A stretch of DNA of 64,000 nucleotides from Escherichia coli (GTDB lineage: Bacteria > Pseudomonadota > Gammaproteobacteria > Enterobacterales > Enterobacteriaceae). This document shows positions 5,992-13,322 of the stretch, one piece after another (the stretch's first letter is position 1; the number at the start of each line of letters is the position of its first letter). The DNA lies in assembly GCF_044324785.1 (NCBI RefSeq), contig NZ_CP172127.1, one strand, 5' to 3'. The notes beneath the pieces were generated by a model. That model had not been told where the DNA came from, ran no database searches, and worked only from the letters and a program-made list of their open reading frames with translations. The position numbers and the translations under genes were made by a program.

Positions 5992-7119
5992 TTGAATTAC
6001 CAAATGATTACCACGGACGATGCGCTGGCTTCTTTGTGTGAAGCCGTCCGTGCCTTTCCGGCGATAGCCCTGGATACTGAATTTGTTCGTACGCGCACCT
6101 ATTACCCGCAACTGGGTCTAATTCAACTTTTTGATGGTGAGCATCTGGCGCTAATTGATCCTCTCGGGATCTCCGACTGGTCACCGCTGAAAGCGATCCT
6201 GCGCGATCCGTCCATCACAAAATTTCTCCATGCGGGCAGTGAAGATCTGGAAGTGTTCCTCAATGTCTTTGGCGAATTACCACAACCCTTGATTGACACG
6301 CAAATCCTTGCTGCCTTCTGCGGACGCCCGATGTCATGGGGTTTCGCTTCCATGGTGGAAGAGTATTCCGGCGTTACGCTGGACAAGAGTGAATCGCGCA
6401 CCGACTGGCTGGCCAGACCGCTGACCGAACGTCAGTGTGAATACGCAGCGGCGGATGTCTGGTATCTGTTACCGATCACCGCAAAGCTTATGGTAGAAAC
6501 GGAGGCCTCCGGCTGGCTACCTGCGGCGCTGGATGAATGCCGCCTGATGCAAATGCGTCGTCAGGAAGTCGTTGCACCGGAAGATGCCTGGCGTGATATT
6601 ACCAATGCCTGGCAGTTACGCACACGCCAACTGGCCTGTCTGCAACTGTTAGCCGACTGGCGACTGCGCAAGGCGCGGGAGCGCGATCTGGCGGTGAACT
6701 TTGTCGTGCGTGAAGAGCATTTGTGGTCGGTAGCGCGTTATATGCCGGGAAGTTTAGGCGAACTGGACAGCCTGGGCTTATCCGGTAGCGAAATCCGCTT
6801 TCACGGTAAAACGCTGCTGGCGCTGGTGGAAAAAGCGCAGACATTGCCGGAAGAGGCCTTACCGCAGCCGATGCTTAACCTGATGGACATGCCGGGTTAT
6901 CGTAAAGCGTTTAAAGCGATTAAGTCGTTGATTACTGACGTGAGCGAAACGCACAAGATCAGCGCCGAATTGCTGGCATCGCGTCGGCAAATCAACCAAC
7001 TGCTGAACTGGCACTGGAAACTGAAACCGCAGAACAATTTGCCGGAGCTGATTTCCGGCTGGCGTGGTGAGCTGATGGCGGAAGCATTACACAATTTATT
7101 GCAGGAATATCCGCAGTAA
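5992..7119 (+). CDS. rnd: ribonuclease D
   Basis: 375-aa ORF MNYQMITTDDALASL starting at TTG 5992 (non-ATG start is established for rnd). Confidence 0.9.
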   Translation: MNYQMITTDDALASLCEAVRAFPAIALDTEFVRTRTYYPQLGLIQLFDGEHLALIDPLGISDWSPLKAILRDPSITKFLHAGSEDLEVFLNVFGELPQPLIDTQILAAFCGRPMSWGFASMVEEYSGVTLDKSESRTDWLARPLTERQCEYAAADVWYLLPITAKLMVETEASGWLPAALDECRLMQMRRQEVVAPEDAWRDITNAWQLRTRQLACLQLLADWRLRKARERDLAVNFVVREEHLWSVARYMPGSLGELDSLGLSGSEIRFHGKTLLALVEKAQTLPEEALPQPMLNLMDMPGYRKAFKAIKSLITDVSETHKISAELLASRRQINQLLNWHWKLKPQNNLPELISGWRGELMAEALHNLLQEYPQ

Positions 7120-7125
7120 AATCTT

Positions 7126-7168
7126 CCGAAGCCGGACTGGGCGCGCTCAGCGCCACATCCGGCTTCGG
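7126..7168. terminator. long palindromic hairpin between convergent rnd and yeaX
   Basis: CCGAAGCCGGA...TCCGGCTTCGG 11-bp stem with an inner GGCGC/GCGCC stem; lies between the two stop codons. Confidence 0.5.
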
Positions 7169-7172
7169 CAAA

Positions 7173-8138
7173 CTACAAATCCAACACCAGGCGTTTACCC
7201 TTCGCGCGCGAACAACAGATCAACATACTTTGCTGGCTGGCACGCTCTTCATCGCTAAAATACTGATCCCGATGGTCAGCTTCACCTTCCAGTATTGCCG
7301 TTTCGCAGGTTCCGCATACCCCTTCACGACATAAACATTCCACTTTCGCTGCTTTATTATTTTCAATAACCTGCAAAATAGTCATCTCTTCCGGCACCAC
7401 ATACTCTTTACCGGAACGGGCAAGCACCAGGGTAAATGCATCGCCGGTTTTGTCTTCAATCGCAAATTGTTCAAAGTGCAGCGTATCGGCGGCGATGTCC
7501 AGACGCGCAGCTTCACTTCTTACCGCCTCATTTAGCGCTTCGGGGCCACAGGTATAAACATGTGTGCCAGGTTCGATATCCGCCAATAATCGCGCTAATT
7601 CCAGTCGTGTTCCGGTTGATGAATGATGCAAATGGACTTTCTCAGCCTGCGGATGCTGGACTAGCTCATCACGAAATGCGCAACTTTCTGGATTTCGTGA
7701 GCAGTAATGTAACTGCCAGTCGACGTCGCTGTATTGCATCTCTGCCAGGTGCGACAGGAAAGGGGTGATACCAATGCCTCCCGCGATAAACAGATGCTTT
7801 CTGGCCGAGGGAATTAGCGCAAACAGGTTATTAGGCGTTGAAATCGTTAACCGATCGCCCACTTTTACCTGCTGATGCAAAAAGCGGGAACCGCCGCGCG
7901 AGTTTTCCTCCAGCCGAACGGCAATCTGATAACAAGAGGTGTCATGCGGCGAACTCAGTAGTGAATACGCATTGCTGTACTCGTTATCACCATCGCTCAT
8001 CTGCACAATGACGTGACTTCCTCCGGTAAACGCAGGTAATGGTTTGCCATCGGTTGCCACCAGCGTGAAGCGTTTCACCTGTTCGGTAAGCGGTTCAATT
8101 TGGCTCACCTGTACTTCAAACATTTGATAGTCTGACAT
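7173..8138 (-). CDS. yeaX: reductase subunit of Rieske-type carnitine monooxygenase (CntB-like)
   Basis: 321 aa; C-terminal plant-type 2Fe-2S motif CREGVCGTCE. Confidence 0.85.
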   Translation of the reverse strand: MSDYQMFEVQVSQIEPLTEQVKRFTLVATDGKPLPAFTGGSHVIVQMSDGDNEYSNAYSLLSSPHDTSCYQIAVRLEENSRGGSRFLHQQVKVGDRLTISTPNNLFALIPSARKHLFIAGGIGITPFLSHLAEMQYSDVDWQLHYCSRNPESCAFRDELVQHPQAEKVHLHHSSTGTRLELARLLADIEPGTHVYTCGPEALNEAVRSEAARLDIAADTLHFEQFAIEDKTGDAFTLVLARSGKEYVVPEEMTILQVIENNKAAKVECLCREGVCGTCETAILEGEADHRDQYFSDEERASQQSMLICCSRAKGKRLVLDL

Positions 8139-8193
8139 TGCTGTACTCCATCAAAAATCAGCCCAGCGGCGGAAAATACCGCCGCCGATGTCA

Positions 8194-9318
8194 TTAGTCC
8201 TTAAACACCTGCGCCAGCAGATTATGGAAATGGGCGATACCATGTTCGGAAATTCCGCTACCGCTACTGTCGGCCATGATGCGCCCCTGACCACGATAGC
8301 CACGCGATTTCAGCCCTTTCTGTACGCTTTCAACCAGACGTAAATCTTCCGGACGGAACACATCGCGATACCACTCAATCAGCGATTTTTGCTCGTCGGT
8401 TAACTCTTCATTGGTGAAGTAAATATCGTAGTTTTGCAGGGTAGTTTCAGAATCCACCGGGAATTCATAAATGACCGTCATCATCCCTTTGATCGGGGTG
8501 ACGTTCAGCATCGTGCACGGCCACAGCCAGAAACCGTGGAATGCCGCATCCGTGCCCTCTTCGAATTTGAAAGACTGTTCGGACGGTTTGGCGAAACCGT
8601 ACTGCAGCGTCCAGTTACCGTGCATGGTGTGCCAGTAACGATCAACCTGAACGGAGTCGGAGAAACCTGGATGCGCCGGACCACAGTGATAGCACTCGAG
8701 ATAGTTATCGACAATGTTCTTCCAGTTGGCAGGCGTGCGGGTGGTAAAGCGGGCCGCCAGTTTCAGGTCGTGGACTTCCGGGCAGGCTTCCAGCACTTTC
8801 GCGCCCAGACCGGGTAACTGATCTTCTACGCTGGTGGCGTTGGGGTCCATGTTGATGAAGACGAATCCGGCATATTCTTCCAGACGCACCGGAACCAGTT
8901 GCGCTTTGTCGCTATCGAAATTGGCGACGTTTTCGCAGTTACGTGCATGGGCCAGATTGCCATCGAGTTTGAATGCCCATGCGTGATACGGGCAGGTAAT
9001 CACATTTTTTGCTTTTCCTTCACCGCTCAACAACTGATGACCACGGTGCGGACACACGTTATAGAACGCGCGCAAAACCTTATCACGACCGCGTACCAGC
9101 ACGATGCTTTCGCCAATGATCTCACGCGTCACATAATCATTGGCATTAGCCAGTTCGCTGCTGTGAGCGACGCAAATCCAGCTTTTGGCGAAGACGTTCT
9201 CTTTTTCGTGTTCAAAGGCGTTCTGATCGGTATAAAAACGGGCAGGAATGGTCCACGCCTCTTGCGGGTTAGCGCAAAAATTTTCGGGTAGTACAAAGTC
9301 AGGGCTCAGATTGCTCAT
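8194..9318 (-). CDS. yeaW: Rieske oxygenase subunit of carnitine monooxygenase (CntA-like)
   Basis: Rieske motif CPHRGHQ...CPYHAW; conserved start MSNLSPDFVLPE at ATG 9318; track ORF is upstream-extended. Confidence 0.85.
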   Translation of the reverse strand: MSNLSPDFVLPENFCANPQEAWTIPARFYTDQNAFEHEKENVFAKSWICVAHSSELANANDYVTREIIGESIVLVRGRDKVLRAFYNVCPHRGHQLLSGEGKAKNVITCPYHAWAFKLDGNLAHARNCENVANFDSDKAQLVPVRLEEYAGFVFINMDPNATSVEDQLPGLGAKVLEACPEVHDLKLAARFTTRTPANWKNIVDNYLECYHCGPAHPGFSDSVQVDRYWHTMHGNWTLQYGFAKPSEQSFKFEEGTDAAFHGFWLWPCTMLNVTPIKGMMTVIYEFPVDSETTLQNYDIYFTNEELTDEQKSLIEWYRDVFRPEDLRLVESVQKGLKSRGYRGQGRIMADSSGSGISEHGIAHFHNLLAQVFKD

Positions 9319-9349
9319 AGGGTTACCTTTATCGTTAGGATGATGGCGC

Positions 9350-10960
9350 TCAGTTGTCGCCTTTGAATACGGTTCCCGCAGGGAGCACTGGTGTTTTTTC
9401 CAGGGCTTCAACCGGTGTCTGCGGGAGATAATGTTCAACTTGATGAGCCGGAATGTCGGCGTAATCCTGTTTCAGCCAGCGAATAAATCCGCCGACTTTC
9501 ACCAGTAAAATGACGAGGAAGGGAAGGGCTGTGAGCACGACGGTGGTTTTCATCGTTTCCAGCGAAGCACCGGTAAACAAGATGGAAAGCGGGATCAGAG
9601 TGATCACCACGCACCAGAAAAGACGCAGCCCACGGTCAGGATCTTCACCTTCCTGGAGATTACGCGTACTGGTCGCCGCCATGGTGTAGGCCACCGCATC
9701 CATATGCGAGGCAAGGAAAATAATCATCACGCCCAGGTATGCGGCGAGGAACAATTTACCGGCTGGCAACGACATCAGAACTTGCTGCACAGCTGTTTCA
9801 CCGCCCAGTGTTTCCAGCACCTGTGGGACGTTGATTACGCCATTGATAAACTGATGAATGGCATAGCTTTCCATTACGCCGAAGAAGAACCAGCAACCGA
9901 CGGTGCTGCCGAGGATCAGTCCCCAGATAACTTCTTTAATCTTATGACCGCGGGAAACGCGGGTGACAAACATTGCTACGCCAGGCGTGTATGAGATCCA
10001 CCACAGCCAGTAGAAAACGGTCCAGTTGCGGGTAAATGAACCATCGCCAAGCGGATCGGTGAATAAGCTCATTTGCAGGAAGTTTTGCGTGGTCAGGCCG
10101 ATGGCATTGATGATGCTGTTGGTAATAAATTCGGTTGGACCGACAATCAGCACCAGTAATGGCAGCAGGAACGCGCCCCAGCCAACCATTTTGCTCAGAC
10201 GTTGCAAACCGTTGTTGATACCAATCCATGAGCTTAGGCAAAAAATGCCGCCGGAAAGCAGGATCACAAATGCCTGCACGGTGAAGTTATCGGGTAAACC
10301 GGTCAGTGCGGAAAGTCCACGAGTAAAGGTTGCTGCGGTGACAACAAGGGAAATAGTCAGTGCGCCGACAGTGGCGATCAGGAACATCAAATCAACCAGT
10401 TTTCCCCATGGGCCTTGCGGGCGAACGCCGGTAATCGCGGCAATAATGCCGGAAAGACTCAGACCTTTGTTTTTCCGCACATGAAAGTGATAAGCCATGA
10501 TTAATGAGGCCAGCGTATAAGTTGCCCAGGCGCTGATGCCCCAGTGGAAGAAGGAGTAAGGGACGCTAAATTCGAGTGCCTGTTGTGAACGCGGTGCGAT
10601 ATTTAATCCAGGCGTTTGATAATAATAGGCCCATTCAGCAACCCCCCAATAAAGCGTAGAAGAACCTAAACCGGCACAAATAAACATAAACAGCCAGGAG
10701 AGCGTGCTGTATTCCGGTTTTCCTTCGCCAAGACGAATATTGCCGTATTTACTGGTGGCTAAATAAATCACCAGTCCCATTGCCAGCAAAACCAATACCT
10801 GTACGGCGGAACCTAACGTACGCGTAACAAAAGTGTATATTGCGTTGGCCGCGTCGGCCGATTGTTGTGGGAAAAGGCTTAATGCAGCTGCGATGAAAAG
10901 AATGGCCACCAGGCTGATGCTTATCAGCGGCACATCTTTTTTCTTAACATTGCTCATCAT
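9350..10960 (-). CDS. yeaV: BCCT-family (betaine/carnitine/choline) transporter YeaV
   Basis: Multi-TM ORF directly upstream of yeaW on the same strand; exact start uncertain (track ORF 536 aa may be N-terminally extended). Confidence 0.8.
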
Positions 10961-11165
10961 GAGTCATCTCCTGGGCATAAAAGCCCGTCTCTGGCTTTTG
11001 CCAGTTGTAATTATTTGCAGGGTAATGAGTTGTATGTTGTGTTTAACAAATTGATTATTTGCATGTTACATAAATTAAACAATTAAGAATACGGAAAGCC
11101 ATAAAACACGAAACGGAAACAATAAAAGGTGAAATGACGCAGGTTATTAACTGCAAAGAACGAAT

Positions 11166-11190
11166 AAAAAAACCGCGTCAGTGACGCGGT
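11166..11190 (-). terminator. intrinsic terminator of dmlA
   Basis: On the minus strand ACCGCG-TCACTGA-CGCGGT followed by T7, 20 nt after the dmlA stop. Confidence 0.75.
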
Positions 11191-11210
11191 TCAAATAAAC
11201 TGGTTTGACC

Positions 11211-12296
11211 TTAACGCAAAATAATTTTGCAAATCGCGTCGGCAACCTGTGGCGTGGTGGCACTGCCTTTCATATCCGGTGTTTTCGGCCCGTGAGCAAT
11301 CACTTCTTCAATCGCTGCCAGAATACCGTTATGCGCTTGCTGGAAACGCTCATCGCCATTGCCGAGAAAATCGAGCATCATTGCACCGGCCCAAATTGTG
11401 GCAATAGGGTTAGCAATATTTTTCCCGTAGATATCCGGCGCGGAACCGTGAACAGGCTCGAAGAGCGACGGGAAAGTGCGTTCCGGATTCAGGTTGGCGG
11501 ATGGGGCAATGCCAATGGTGCCGGTGCAGGCCGGGCCAAGATCGGAAAGGATATCGCCAAACAAATTGGACGCCACCACCACATCGAAGCGTTCCGGCTG
11601 CATCACAAAACGCGCGCAGAGAATATCAATATGCTGCTTGTCCCAGCGGATCTCCGGGTAATTCTCGGCCATTGCTTCCACTCGCTCATCCCAGTACGGC
11701 ATGCTGATGGCTAAACCGTTTGATTTAGTGGCAGAGGTTAGCGTCTTACGTGGGCGGCTTTGCGCAAGTTCGAAGGCATAACGCAAAATGCGATCGACAC
11801 CACGACGCGTAAATACCGATTCCTGAATGACGACTTCATGCTCTGTACCTTCATTCACTCTACCGCCGAGCGAGGAATATTCGCCTTCGGTGTTTTCCCT
11901 GACCACGTAAAAATCGATGTCGCCAGGCTGTTTTCCCGCCAGCGGGCAGGGAACGCCAGGAAAGAGACGAACCGGGCGCAGGTTGACGTACTGGTCGAAT
12001 TCACGACGAAATTTCAGCAGCGAACCCCACAACGAAATATGGTCCGGAACGGTGTCCGGCCAGCCGACGGCACCAAAATAGATGGCGTCGAAACGGCTAA
12101 GTTGCTCATGCCAGTCGTCCGGCATCATTTTACCGTGATGGCTGTAATACTCGCAGCTCGCCCACTCCATTTGCTCAAAACTCAAGGCGAAGCCCCAGCG
12201 CTCAGCGGCAGCCTGTAACACGCGAATCCCTTCAGGAAGGACTTCTTTGCCAATCCCGTCTCCCGGGATCGCAGCAATACGCATCGTTTTCATCAT
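11211..12296 (-). CDS. dmlA: D-malate dehydrogenase (decarboxylating), isocitrate/isopropylmalate DH family
   Basis: 361-aa ORF MMKTMRIAAIPGDGIGKEV with the family N-terminal fold signature. Confidence 0.85.
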   Translation of the reverse strand: MMKTMRIAAIPGDGIGKEVLPEGIRVLQAAAERWGFALSFEQMEWASCEYYSHHGKMMPDDWHEQLSRFDAIYFGAVGWPDTVPDHISLWGSLLKFRREFDQYVNLRPVRLFPGVPCPLAGKQPGDIDFYVVRENTEGEYSSLGGRVNEGTEHEVVIQESVFTRRGVDRILRYAFELAQSRPRKTLTSATKSNGLAISMPYWDERVEAMAENYPEIRWDKQHIDILCARFVMQPERFDVVVASNLFGDILSDLGPACTGTIGIAPSANLNPERTFPSLFEPVHGSAPDIYGKNIANPIATIWAGAMMLDFLGNGDERFQQAHNGILAAIEEVIAHGPKTPDMKGSATTPQVADAICKIILR

Positions 12297-12398
12297 TGGG
12301 TTCTCACTTCCTGACCATCAAAATTGACAACATCACCATCCTATAATTGACTGAAAAGGAATTAATCCCCGTAACTGGTGAAACATAAAACACGAATC

Positions 12399-13322
12399 AT
12401 GAATAATTTACCGCTGCTGAACGATTTGCGCGTCTTTATGCTGGTGGCTCGCCGGGCTGGTTTTGCCGCCGTGGCGGAAGAACTGGGCGTTTCACCGGCG
12501 TTCGTCAGCAAGCGCATCGCCTTGCTGGAGCAAACGCTAAACGTGGTGTTGTTACACCGCACCACCCGCCGCGTCACCATTACCGAAGAAGGAGAGCGGA
12601 TTTATGAATGGGCGCAGCGGATTTTGCAGGATGTCGGTCAGATGATGGACGAACTTTCTGACGTGCGTCAGGTGCCACAGGGGATGCTGCGTATTATCAG
12701 CAGCTTTGGTTTTGGACGACAGGTGGTGGCTCCGGCGTTATCAGCGCTGGCGAAGGCGTATCCGCAACTGGAATTACGTTTTGATGTGGAAGACCGGCTG
12801 GTCGATTTGGTCAATGAAGGTGTCGATCTCGATATTCGCATTGGCGATGACATCGCCCCTAATTTAATCGCCCGCAAACTGGCGACCAATTACCGCATTC
12901 TCTGCGCGTCGCCGGAATTTATTGCGCAACATGGCACGCCGAAACATTTAACCGATCTTTCTGCATTGCCGTGCCTGGTCATTAAAGAGCGCGATCATCC
13001 TTTTGGTGTCTGGCAATTACGCAATAAAGAAGGCCACCATGCGATTAAAGTCACCGGCCCACTGTCGTCTAATCATGGAGAAATTGTCCATCAGTGGTGT
13101 CTCGATGGGCAGGGGATTGCTCTGCGTTCCTGGTGGGATGTTAGCGAAAACATTGCCAGTGGTCATTTAGTGCAAGTGCTACCGGAATATTACCAGCCAG
13201 CGAACGTCTGGGCCGTTTATGTTTCAAGGCTGGCGACGTCAGCGAAAGTGCGGATAACGGTAGAATTTTTACGCCAGTATTTTGCCGAGCACTACCCGAA
13301 TTTTTCACTGGAGCATGCCTGA
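12399..13322 (+). CDS. dmlR: LysR-type transcriptional regulator DmlR
   Basis: N-terminal HTH MNNLPLLNDLRVFMLVARRAGFAAVAEELGVSPAFVS; divergent from dmlA; track ORF trimmed to ATG 12399. Confidence 0.85.
   Translation: MNNLPLLNDLRVFMLVARRAGFAAVAEELGVSPAFVSKRIALLEQTLNVVLLHRTTRRVTITEEGERIYEWAQRILQDVGQMMDELSDVRQVPQGMLRIISSFGFGRQVVAPALSALAKAYPQLELRFDVEDRLVDLVNEGVDLDIRIGDDIAPNLIARKLATNYRILCASPEFIAQHGTPKHLTDLSALPCLVIKERDHPFGVWQLRNKEGHHAIKVTGPLSSNHGEIVHQWCLDGQGIALRSWWDVSENIASGHLVQVLPEYYQPANVWAVYVSRLATSAKVRITVEFLRQYFAEHYPNFSLEHA

Follow-up and report, generated by a model that had tools for sequence, protein, structure and literature searches.

An intact yeaV-yeaW-yeaX carnitine monooxygenase locus in Escherichia coli, with a full-length transporter gene no longer present in the laboratory strains K-12 and B

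Can Escherichia coli import carnitine and turn it into trimethylamine (TMA), and how far does the answer depend on the strain in which it is sought? The question is raised by positions 7173-10960 of a 64,000-nucleotide stretch of E. coli DNA (NCBI RefSeq assembly GCF_044324785.1, contig NZ_CP172127.1; the whole stretch is called the window here), where a transporter gene, yeaV, is followed by the genes of a two-component Rieske oxygenase, yeaW and yeaX. The locus is the known E. coli yeaV-yeaW-yeaX system and is an ordinary one, with gene content and enzyme chemistry established before and no new biology. Its notable point is that the window keeps an intact transporter gene, which has been lost from the K-12 and B laboratory strains. 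We consider it very probable that the region is the aerobic carnitine/gamma-butyrobetaine-to-TMA system of E. coli, present here as the intact allele and with YeaV importing the substrate.

Open reading frames (ORFs) were called from a six-frame list of the window, and domains were assigned with Pfam and NCBIfam. An earlier note on this DNA, made from the letters alone, had described three consecutive minus-strand ORFs with a 31-nt gap between yeaV and yeaW, and the ORF list agrees with that layout to the base:

9350-10960, minus strand: yeaV, full-length BCCT-family transporter of 536 residues
9319-9349, minus strand: yeaV-yeaW spacer of 31 nt, holding the yeaW ribosome-binding site AAGG
8194-9318, minus strand: yeaW (= cntA), oxygenase subunit of carnitine monooxygenase, 374 residues, with ATG 9318 as start codon and the stop at 8194
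8139-8193, minus strand: yeaW-yeaX spacer of 55 nt, with a GC-rich hairpin (8163-8188), a T-run and the yeaX ribosome-binding site GGAG
7173-8138, minus strand: yeaX (= cntB), reductase subunit of 321 residues, dependent on reduced nicotinamide adenine dinucleotide (NADH) and of the flavin mononucleotide (FMN)/[2Fe-2S] type

Each gene has a ribosome-binding site 8 nt before its start (AGGAG for yeaV, AAGG for yeaW and GGAG for yeaX), no frameshift or stop interrupts the genes in the ORF list, and the Pfam and NCBIfam E-values over the three proteins range from 1e-120 to 1e-5, the weakest being that of a reductase domain. The mechanical ORF of yeaW extends to a TTG at 9438 inside yeaV; in the form that begins at the ATG, residue 4 is where homology to CntA starts, and RefSeq likewise uses ATG 9318. 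The Rieske and ferredoxin motifs that the earlier note had quoted are present (CPHRGHQ at YeaW 89-95, CPYHAW at YeaW 109-114 and CREGVCGTC at YeaX 270-278), and its gene names, together with its reading of the architecture as CntA/CntB plus an importer, were right, as the domains, the CntA match and the RefSeq annotation all indicate. In RefSeq, the best-matching E. coli genome carries the same three genes at equal lengths, annotated there as BCCT family transporter, carnitine monooxygenase oxygenase subunit and carnitine monooxygenase reductase subunit. The trio lies between rnd and dmlA.

What the enzyme does can be answered firmly. YeaW has the Rieske and Ring_hydroxyl_A domains (about 1e-23 each in Pfam) and matches the crystallised CntA of Acinetobacter baumannii (PDB 6y8j) with an E-value of 9e-197 and 73% identity. 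The residues mapped onto YeaW were those defined in the CntA structure paper (PMC7948474), plus the bridging Glu205, and 18 of the 18 ligand and substrate-pocket residues checked are conserved. The Rieske ligands C89, H91, C109 and H112 of YeaW correspond to CntA C86, H88, C106 and H109, and the iron triad H211, H216 and D325 to CntA H208, H213 and D323. Also conserved is E208, the counterpart of CntA E205, which has a bridging role according to the CntA literature (the text of PMC7948474 does not contain 'Glu205'). The pi-cation tyrosine Y206 (CntA Y203) and the cysteine pair C209/C212 (CntA C206/C209) are kept, the pocket residues F260, Y317, F321, Y228, N272 and Y297 are identical to CntA F258, Y315, F319, Y225, N270 and Y295, and the pocket residues F219 and F250 are likewise conserved. 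The amino-acid sequence of YeaW is identical to that of K-12 YeaW.

YeaX contains the Pfam domains Fer2, NAD_binding_1 and FAD_binding_6; its entire sequence aligns with that of phthalate dioxygenase reductase (2pia, E 5e-55), and it also matches the reductase domains of self-sufficient P450s. Its cluster cysteines are C270, C275, C278 and C308. Mutagenesis has found R271, K313 and D320 to matter for function (PMC9508527), and all three are kept in the window; the 7 positions at which YeaX differs from K-12 include none of these residues and no cluster cysteine. The oxygenase is thus of the alpha-only kind, with an adjacent single-polypeptide FMN/NADH/[2Fe-2S] reductase: no gene for a beta subunit was found, the sole same-strand ORF of at least 60 residues in the yeaV-yeaX span being one of 69 residues that overlaps yeaW internally in a different frame, and the span holds no further gene in the RefSeq annotation. 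CntA/CntB of A. baumannii (EC 1.14.13.239; PDB 6Y8J, 6Y9D; a member of the group V Rieske oxygenases) is alike in having no beta subunit gene and a reductase of the phthalate dioxygenase reductase type, and its subunits can be exchanged with those of E. coli in vitro.

The carnitine monooxygenase activity of YeaX/YeaW is an established fact and no mere prediction. Piskol et al. 2022 purified the E. coli proteins and showed cleavage of L-carnitine at about 1.3 umol/min/mg, with O2 consumption to match, and identified FMN, plant-type and Rieske [2Fe-2S] clusters and mononuclear iron as the cofactors (PMC9508527). In the same study activity was retained at 0.4% O2, and chimeras with CntA and CntB were functional, YeaX with CntA reaching 100% activity (PMC9508527). 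The formation of TMA from carnitine, offered in the earlier note as a prediction, had therefore already been demonstrated, and the substrate range, which it called uncertain, is largely known as far as the in vitro range goes. Enzymes encoded by enterobacterial CntA orthologues have been summarised as highly active on carnitine and gamma-butyrobetaine, of medium activity on glycine betaine and of very low activity on choline (PMC9508527); in a newer aldehyde assay, the A. baumannii enzyme used only carnitine and gamma-butyrobetaine, with zero activity on choline and glycine betaine (PMC11353897).

The transporter is the part that sets this allele apart. YeaV matches the BCCT profile PF02028 over residues 14-499 (E 3.9e-120, profile positions 3-485 of 485) and NF007412 of NCBIfam over 1-536 of 536 (1030 bits). 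Orthologues of 528-548 residues occur in Klebsiella, Citrobacter/Salmonella, Serratia, Yersinia, Xenorhabdus, Pseudomonas, Cupriavidus, Achromobacter, Aeromonas and Helicobacter; most of them, among them those of 532-548 residues in many genera, align at 95% coverage or more. Hydropathy places the first two transmembrane (TM) helices at about 7-35 (TM1) and 43-73 (TM2), so that the BCCT domain is complete including both, and the start context ...CAGGAG...ATG(A/T)TGAGCAA is shared by Klebsiella and Citrobacter. The end-to-end profile match, the orthologue lengths, the start context and the hydropathy together support the yeaV start at 10960 well. The earlier note had left this start in doubt; for the window it is settled at ATG 10960, and the uncertainty belongs to the 5'-truncated allele of K-12.

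Comparison with CaiT, the carnitine/gamma-butyrobetaine antiporter of E. coli (PDB 2WSX, 3HFX), suggests how YeaV may work. The two share the BCCT fold, the substrate-site glutamate (E109 in YeaV) and the Trp/Tyr residues of the site: W140, W145, Y148, W320, W321 and Y324 of YeaV align with CaiT W142, W147, Y150, W323, W324 and Y327, the residues of its aromatic box. CaiT differs in being only 29% identical to YeaV, in lying in the anaerobic cai operon and in having R262 and M331, which replace the two Na+ sites and underlie its ion-independent exchange. The corresponding residues in YeaV are V259 and V328, so the antiporter pair is absent, and the presence of Val at both positions argues for symport rather than exchange.

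A further parallel is Aci01347, the A. baumannii BCCT protein, of the same family and in the same position upstream of cntA, for which 56% identity to the product of the E. coli bcct gene (YeaV) has been reported (PMC11353897). YeaV, like it, has only about 39 residues past the last predicted helix, and a BCCT gene stands directly upstream of cntA in the window and in 7 of the 7 other genera examined. Aci01347 is needed for growth on carnitine and mediates protonophore-sensitive uptake of 14C-carnitine, and it also imports choline in a protonophore-sensitive manner (PMC6562126). By this analogy YeaV would be an importer of carnitine and/or gamma-butyrobetaine.

In the mechanism we propose, YeaV, a 12-TM secondary transporter, would import the quaternary amine, most likely by proton symport and not by exchange of the CaiT type. 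YeaX passes two electrons from NADH, via FMN and its plant-type [2Fe-2S] cluster, to the Rieske cluster of the trimeric YeaW, from which they cross the YeaW subunit interface through the bridging Glu208 to the mononuclear iron held by His211, His216 and Asp325. O2 is activated and C4 of the substrate hydroxylated, and the resulting hemiaminal collapses: carnitine then gives TMA and malic semialdehyde, and gamma-butyrobetaine gives TMA and succinic semialdehyde. These steps of electron transfer and cleavage by YeaX/YeaW have been shown in vitro for the E. coli proteins (PMC9508527). DmlA, the product of the neighbouring gene, could convert D-malate on to pyruvate; since E. coli has no dedicated dehydrogenase, the malic-semialdehyde step would be either missing or supplied by GabD/Sad.

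What the laboratory strains lack of this allele is a segment delimited by alignment and by BLAST breakpoints:

10832-11056, no strand assigned: 225-bp segment, present here and deleted in K-12 and E. coli B

In the alignment of the window with MG1655, the segment holds yeaV codons 1-43 (and with them TM1), the ribosome-binding site and 96 nt upstream; in the RefSeq PGAP annotation of both MG1655 and E. coli B, yeaV is a pseudogene flagged 'missing N-terminus'. To place the allele within the species, positions 7000-11300 were compared by megablast with 5,426 complete E. coli genomes, of which 5,425 matched. At least 80% of the locus was found in 4,367 genomes and the 225-bp segment in 2,930, so that about 54% are intact; some 26% appear truncated in the manner of K-12, a figure obtained by subtraction and not by direct count. 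A further group of about 1,058 genomes (19.5%), including Nissle and uropathogenic strains, match at the rnd end only and lack the cluster. The best genome matches the query at only 99.0% identity, and the idea that the window is atypical was considered and rejected: per-gene identities from fadD to leuE are 98-99.7%, which points to ordinary divergence between lineages with no local anomaly. No paper was found that mentions the truncation; those brought up by a literature search on yeaV as a pseudogene are silent on it in their yeaV passages.

The real unit is larger than the three genes and comprises five, dmlR<>dmlA-yeaV-yeaW-yeaX, the additional two being:

11211-12296, minus strand: dmlA (yeaU), decarboxylating D-malate dehydrogenase (PF00180, TIGR02089)
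12399-13322, plus strand: dmlR (yeaT), divergent LysR-type regulator (HTH_1 and LysR_substrate; RefSeq start)

In 6 other genera a dmlA-type gene adjoins the BCCT gene and a divergent LysR gene is present, and Pseudomonas, Cupriavidus, Serratia, Klebsiella and Citrobacter/Salmonella have the arrangement LysR<>Iso_dh-BCCT-CntA-Aldedh-CntB. The latter is the A. baumannii cluster, carR-mdh-bcct-hyd-cntA-msadh-cntB, minus hyd, and gene order and orientation agree with it in the window (divergent LysR, Iso_dh, BCCT, CntA ... CntB). The five E. coli orthologues are reported to be 45, 72, 56, 72 and 52% identical to their A. baumannii counterparts, with hyd and msadh absent; the first two values are those of DmlR against CarR, the carnitine regulator, and of DmlA against the malate dehydrogenase of the carnitine pathway (PMC11353897). 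In A. baumannii the aldehyde dehydrogenase specifically converts malic semialdehyde to D-malate, which the Iso_dh-family enzyme decarboxylates to pyruvate (Piskol et al. 2024, PMC11353897). Two genes thus set E. coli apart from A. baumannii, which has hyd before cntA and msadh between cntA and cntB. No acylcarnitine hydrolase gene (hyd) lies between yeaV and yeaW, where there is only the 31-nt spacer. The malic-semialdehyde dehydrogenase gene of other genera sits where the window has the 55-nt yeaW-yeaX spacer, and the 3' half of that spacer has its homologue between aldh and cntB in Klebsiella and Citrobacter, so that the dehydrogenase gene looks to have been cleanly excised in E. coli. Shimwellia is likewise without msadh. 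As a separate observation, Helicobacter aurati (7001-9721 of its locus) has the BCCT-CntA pair only, with no adjacent reductase, dehydrogenase or LysR gene. The dmlR ORF, for its part, could begin at GTG 12378 (314 residues) instead of the RefSeq ATG at 12399 (307 residues), and a longer protein is hinted at by the Arg-Ile that would precede the Met, since Pseudomonas and Cupriavidus, too, encode it ahead of the called start.

Both the loss and the retention of this unit are informative. Compared with the window, Nissle has three separate deletions, 7197-11185, 11223-11775 and 11949-13154 (Nissle locus 6120-6540); in Nissle and in genomes of the uropathogenic type, three such deletions take yeaX-yeaW-yeaV, most of dmlA and most of dmlR, and leave rnd and leuE intact, the remnant of dmlA being 92.5% identical between flanks that are 98% identical. 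Such joint decay of five genes fits one functional unit, though it may also reflect the history of a single lineage. Where present, the genes are under strong purifying selection: in comparison with K-12, yeaW shows 14 synonymous and 0 non-synonymous differences, and the ratio of non-synonymous to synonymous substitution rates (dN/dS) is 0.02-0.11 for yeaV, yeaX and dmlA.

How the operon might be expressed was addressed through its non-coding regions:

10961-11169, minus strand: yeaV upstream region, probable promoter/operator of yeaVWX (five-genus alignment, repeats)
11170-11192, minus strand: intrinsic terminator after dmlA, with a 10-bp stem and T7, parting dmlA from yeaVWX
7126-7168, no strand assigned: hairpin between the convergent yeaX and rnd, a probable bidirectional terminator (-38.8 kcal/mol, z -6.9)
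cntB-proximal hairpins in other genera: 10237-10293 of the Klebsiella locus (L009), 10239-10290 of locus L010, 11258-11298 of locus L008 and 8789-8856 of locus L011

Given the strong terminator after dmlA and the hairpin after yeaX, yeaVWX is probably a transcription unit of its own. The region upstream of yeaV has blocks conserved across five enterobacterial genera, a dyad TGTTTAA-N28-TTAAACA at 11040-11081 and a 15-nt direct repeat, ATTATTTGCAnGnTA, at 11010 and 11054; the K-12 deletion takes half of the dyad and half of the direct repeat. Two candidates for regulation were set aside. A CRP site upstream of yeaV, a gene predicted as a CRP target in a paper using genomic SELEX (systematic evolution of ligands by exponential enrichment), found no support here, the sole CRP-like match being the terminator hairpin itself and the window-wide count being that expected by chance. 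An operator common to the dmlR-dmlA spacer and the yeaV upstream region was suggested by a 13-mer, TTCGTGTTTTATG, which the two share in E. coli (at 12378-12398, a stretch that may code for part of a longer DmlR, and at about 11100 upstream of yeaV); the 13-mer is absent from the regions extracted for other genera, and this candidate was not used.

The hairpin in the yeaW-yeaX spacer (8163-8188, minus strand) was called terminator-like, with a fold of -26.2 kcal/mol and a z of -4.6. Each genus examined has its own GC-rich hairpin, of differing sequence, right 5' of the cntB/yeaX ribosome-binding site, followed by a T-run in E. coli, Klebsiella and Citrobacter; no consensus fold across genera was obtained with RNAalifold and MAFFT, the stems not being alignable. 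This cntB-proximal hairpin may set the ratio of oxygenase to reductase, either as an attenuator inside the operon or by acting on mRNA stability. Three smaller observations concern the surroundings. The Nissle version of the yeaX/rnd hairpin is shorter. The 504-nt dmlA-yeaV spacer of Klebsiella (locus L009, 5497-6000) holds three repeats resembling repetitive extragenic palindromic (REP) elements, GTAGCCCGGGTAAGGCGCAGCCGCTACCCGG..., which are absent from E. coli. Finally, the rnd ORF (5992-7119, plus strand) starts at TTG 5992 and encodes 375 residues (MNYQMITTDD...), the RefSeq PGAP form being 4 codons shorter with an ATG; RNase D has been reported to initiate at UUG.

Several points weigh against reading the region as a working import and cleavage system. 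The solved structure closest to YeaV is DddT (PDB 21FH and others; E 1e-100 over residues 16-498), a BCCT transporter of dimethylsulfoniopropionate (DMSP), with CaiT reaching only E 1e-69, so the specificity of YeaV is not readable from homology alone. The only data on YeaV itself come from K-12 Keio and ASKA constructs, which have the truncated allele, and yield a mixed metabolite set: untargeted metabolomics ties yeaV to pantothenate, kynurenate and, on overexpression, carnitine (PMC10971958). From the dmlA terminator to the yeaV ATG, the strand of the operon shows no consensus sigma-70 promoter, and in public expression data no condition shows substantial transcription, according to the authors who consulted them (PMC11353897). 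An msadh orthologue was found in 0 of the 5,426 E. coli genomes, so that the catabolic route may be incomplete. Finally, carnitine supports no growth of K-12, B or BL21, a BL21 extract was inactive (PMC11353897), and the K-12 derivative MKH13 takes up no carnitine (Breisch 2018, PMC6562126). Compared with the A. baumannii-type cluster, then, E. coli lacks the aldehyde dehydrogenase, has a strong terminator between dmlA and yeaV and, in the strains tested, does not grow on carnitine.

The allele, however, changes what the last of these results can tell us. K-12 and B carry the truncated yeaV, and BL21 (a B derivative) and MKH13 (a K-12 derivative) presumably do as well; if so, the negative results on growth and uptake do not speak for strains with the intact allele. 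We therefore put forward, tentatively and as one possibility, that the belief that E. coli with cntA leaves carnitine unused may be an artefact of laboratory strains, and that strains with the intact allele may import carnitine or gamma-butyrobetaine and, when oxygen is scarce (micro-oxic conditions), release TMA in vivo, with the aldehyde going through GabD/Sad and, on the carnitine route, D-malate through DmlA to pyruvate, possibly under the control of DmlR.

Among the other explanations, the one that survives best is that the physiological substrate is gamma-butyrobetaine, made anaerobically by the cai pathway and reclaimed by YeaVWX when oxygen is available, the succinic semialdehyde passing to succinate via GabD/Sad. 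For CntA-type enzymes gamma-butyrobetaine is about as good a substrate as carnitine (PMC9508527, PMC11353897, PMC5433236), and YeaW has the same substrate pocket as CntA, of which crystals were obtained with either ligand. Such a route would also explain how E. coli could lose malic-semialdehyde dehydrogenase: with msadh in none of the genomes, the closest E. coli match to the Klebsiella gene is gabD (69% nucleotide identity), which encodes succinate-semialdehyde dehydrogenase. The link to dmlA and dmlR, retained under purifying selection, and the joint decay of the block in Nissle-type genomes fit D-malate, and hence carnitine, better, and we find this explanation rather doubtful.

We think it unlikely that the cluster is no carbon-source pathway at all and serves to trim carnitine-type compatible solutes after osmotic stress, for homeostasis or detoxification, with the aldehyde handled non-specifically. 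A role of this kind has been proposed for clusters without msadh and/or mdh by the authors who found no growth on carnitine in three E. coli strains (PMC11353897), and in O157:H7 grown in glucose minimal medium, yeaV and yeaW were about 2-fold up in growth-phase transitions (PMC2241611). The non-growing strains, however, are those that carry (K-12, B) or presumably carry (BL21) the truncated yeaV, so the negative may be allele-specific, and catabolic units usually pair a dedicated importer with a degrading enzyme, as here, where dmlA is also retained. It is improbable that E. coli is in the course of losing the locus as an evolutionary remnant, functionless in most strains: msadh is gone everywhere, yeaV truncated in about 26% of genomes and the five-gene block removed by three deletions in about 19.5%, but the purifying selection on yeaW (0 non-synonymous against 14 synonymous differences) and on yeaV, yeaX and dmlA (dN/dS no higher than 0.11), the window genes free of frameshifts and stops, and an enzyme highly active in vitro all speak against it.

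Gut-bacterial TMA is the precursor of trimethylamine N-oxide (TMAO), a metabolite associated with cardiovascular disease. Most of the cntA sequences found in human stool are E. coli-like (PMC5433236). Since the E. coli locus exists in three states, intact, truncated in the transporter and absent, and since the negative tests and the screen of YeaV used strains with the truncated allele (or, for some, presumably so), counts of cntA in metagenomes, or extrapolation from K-12, may misjudge the capacity of E. coli to form TMA from carnitine. With the system itself already characterised, the remaining interest of the locus lies in the polymorphism of its alleles and in its function in E. coli in vivo.

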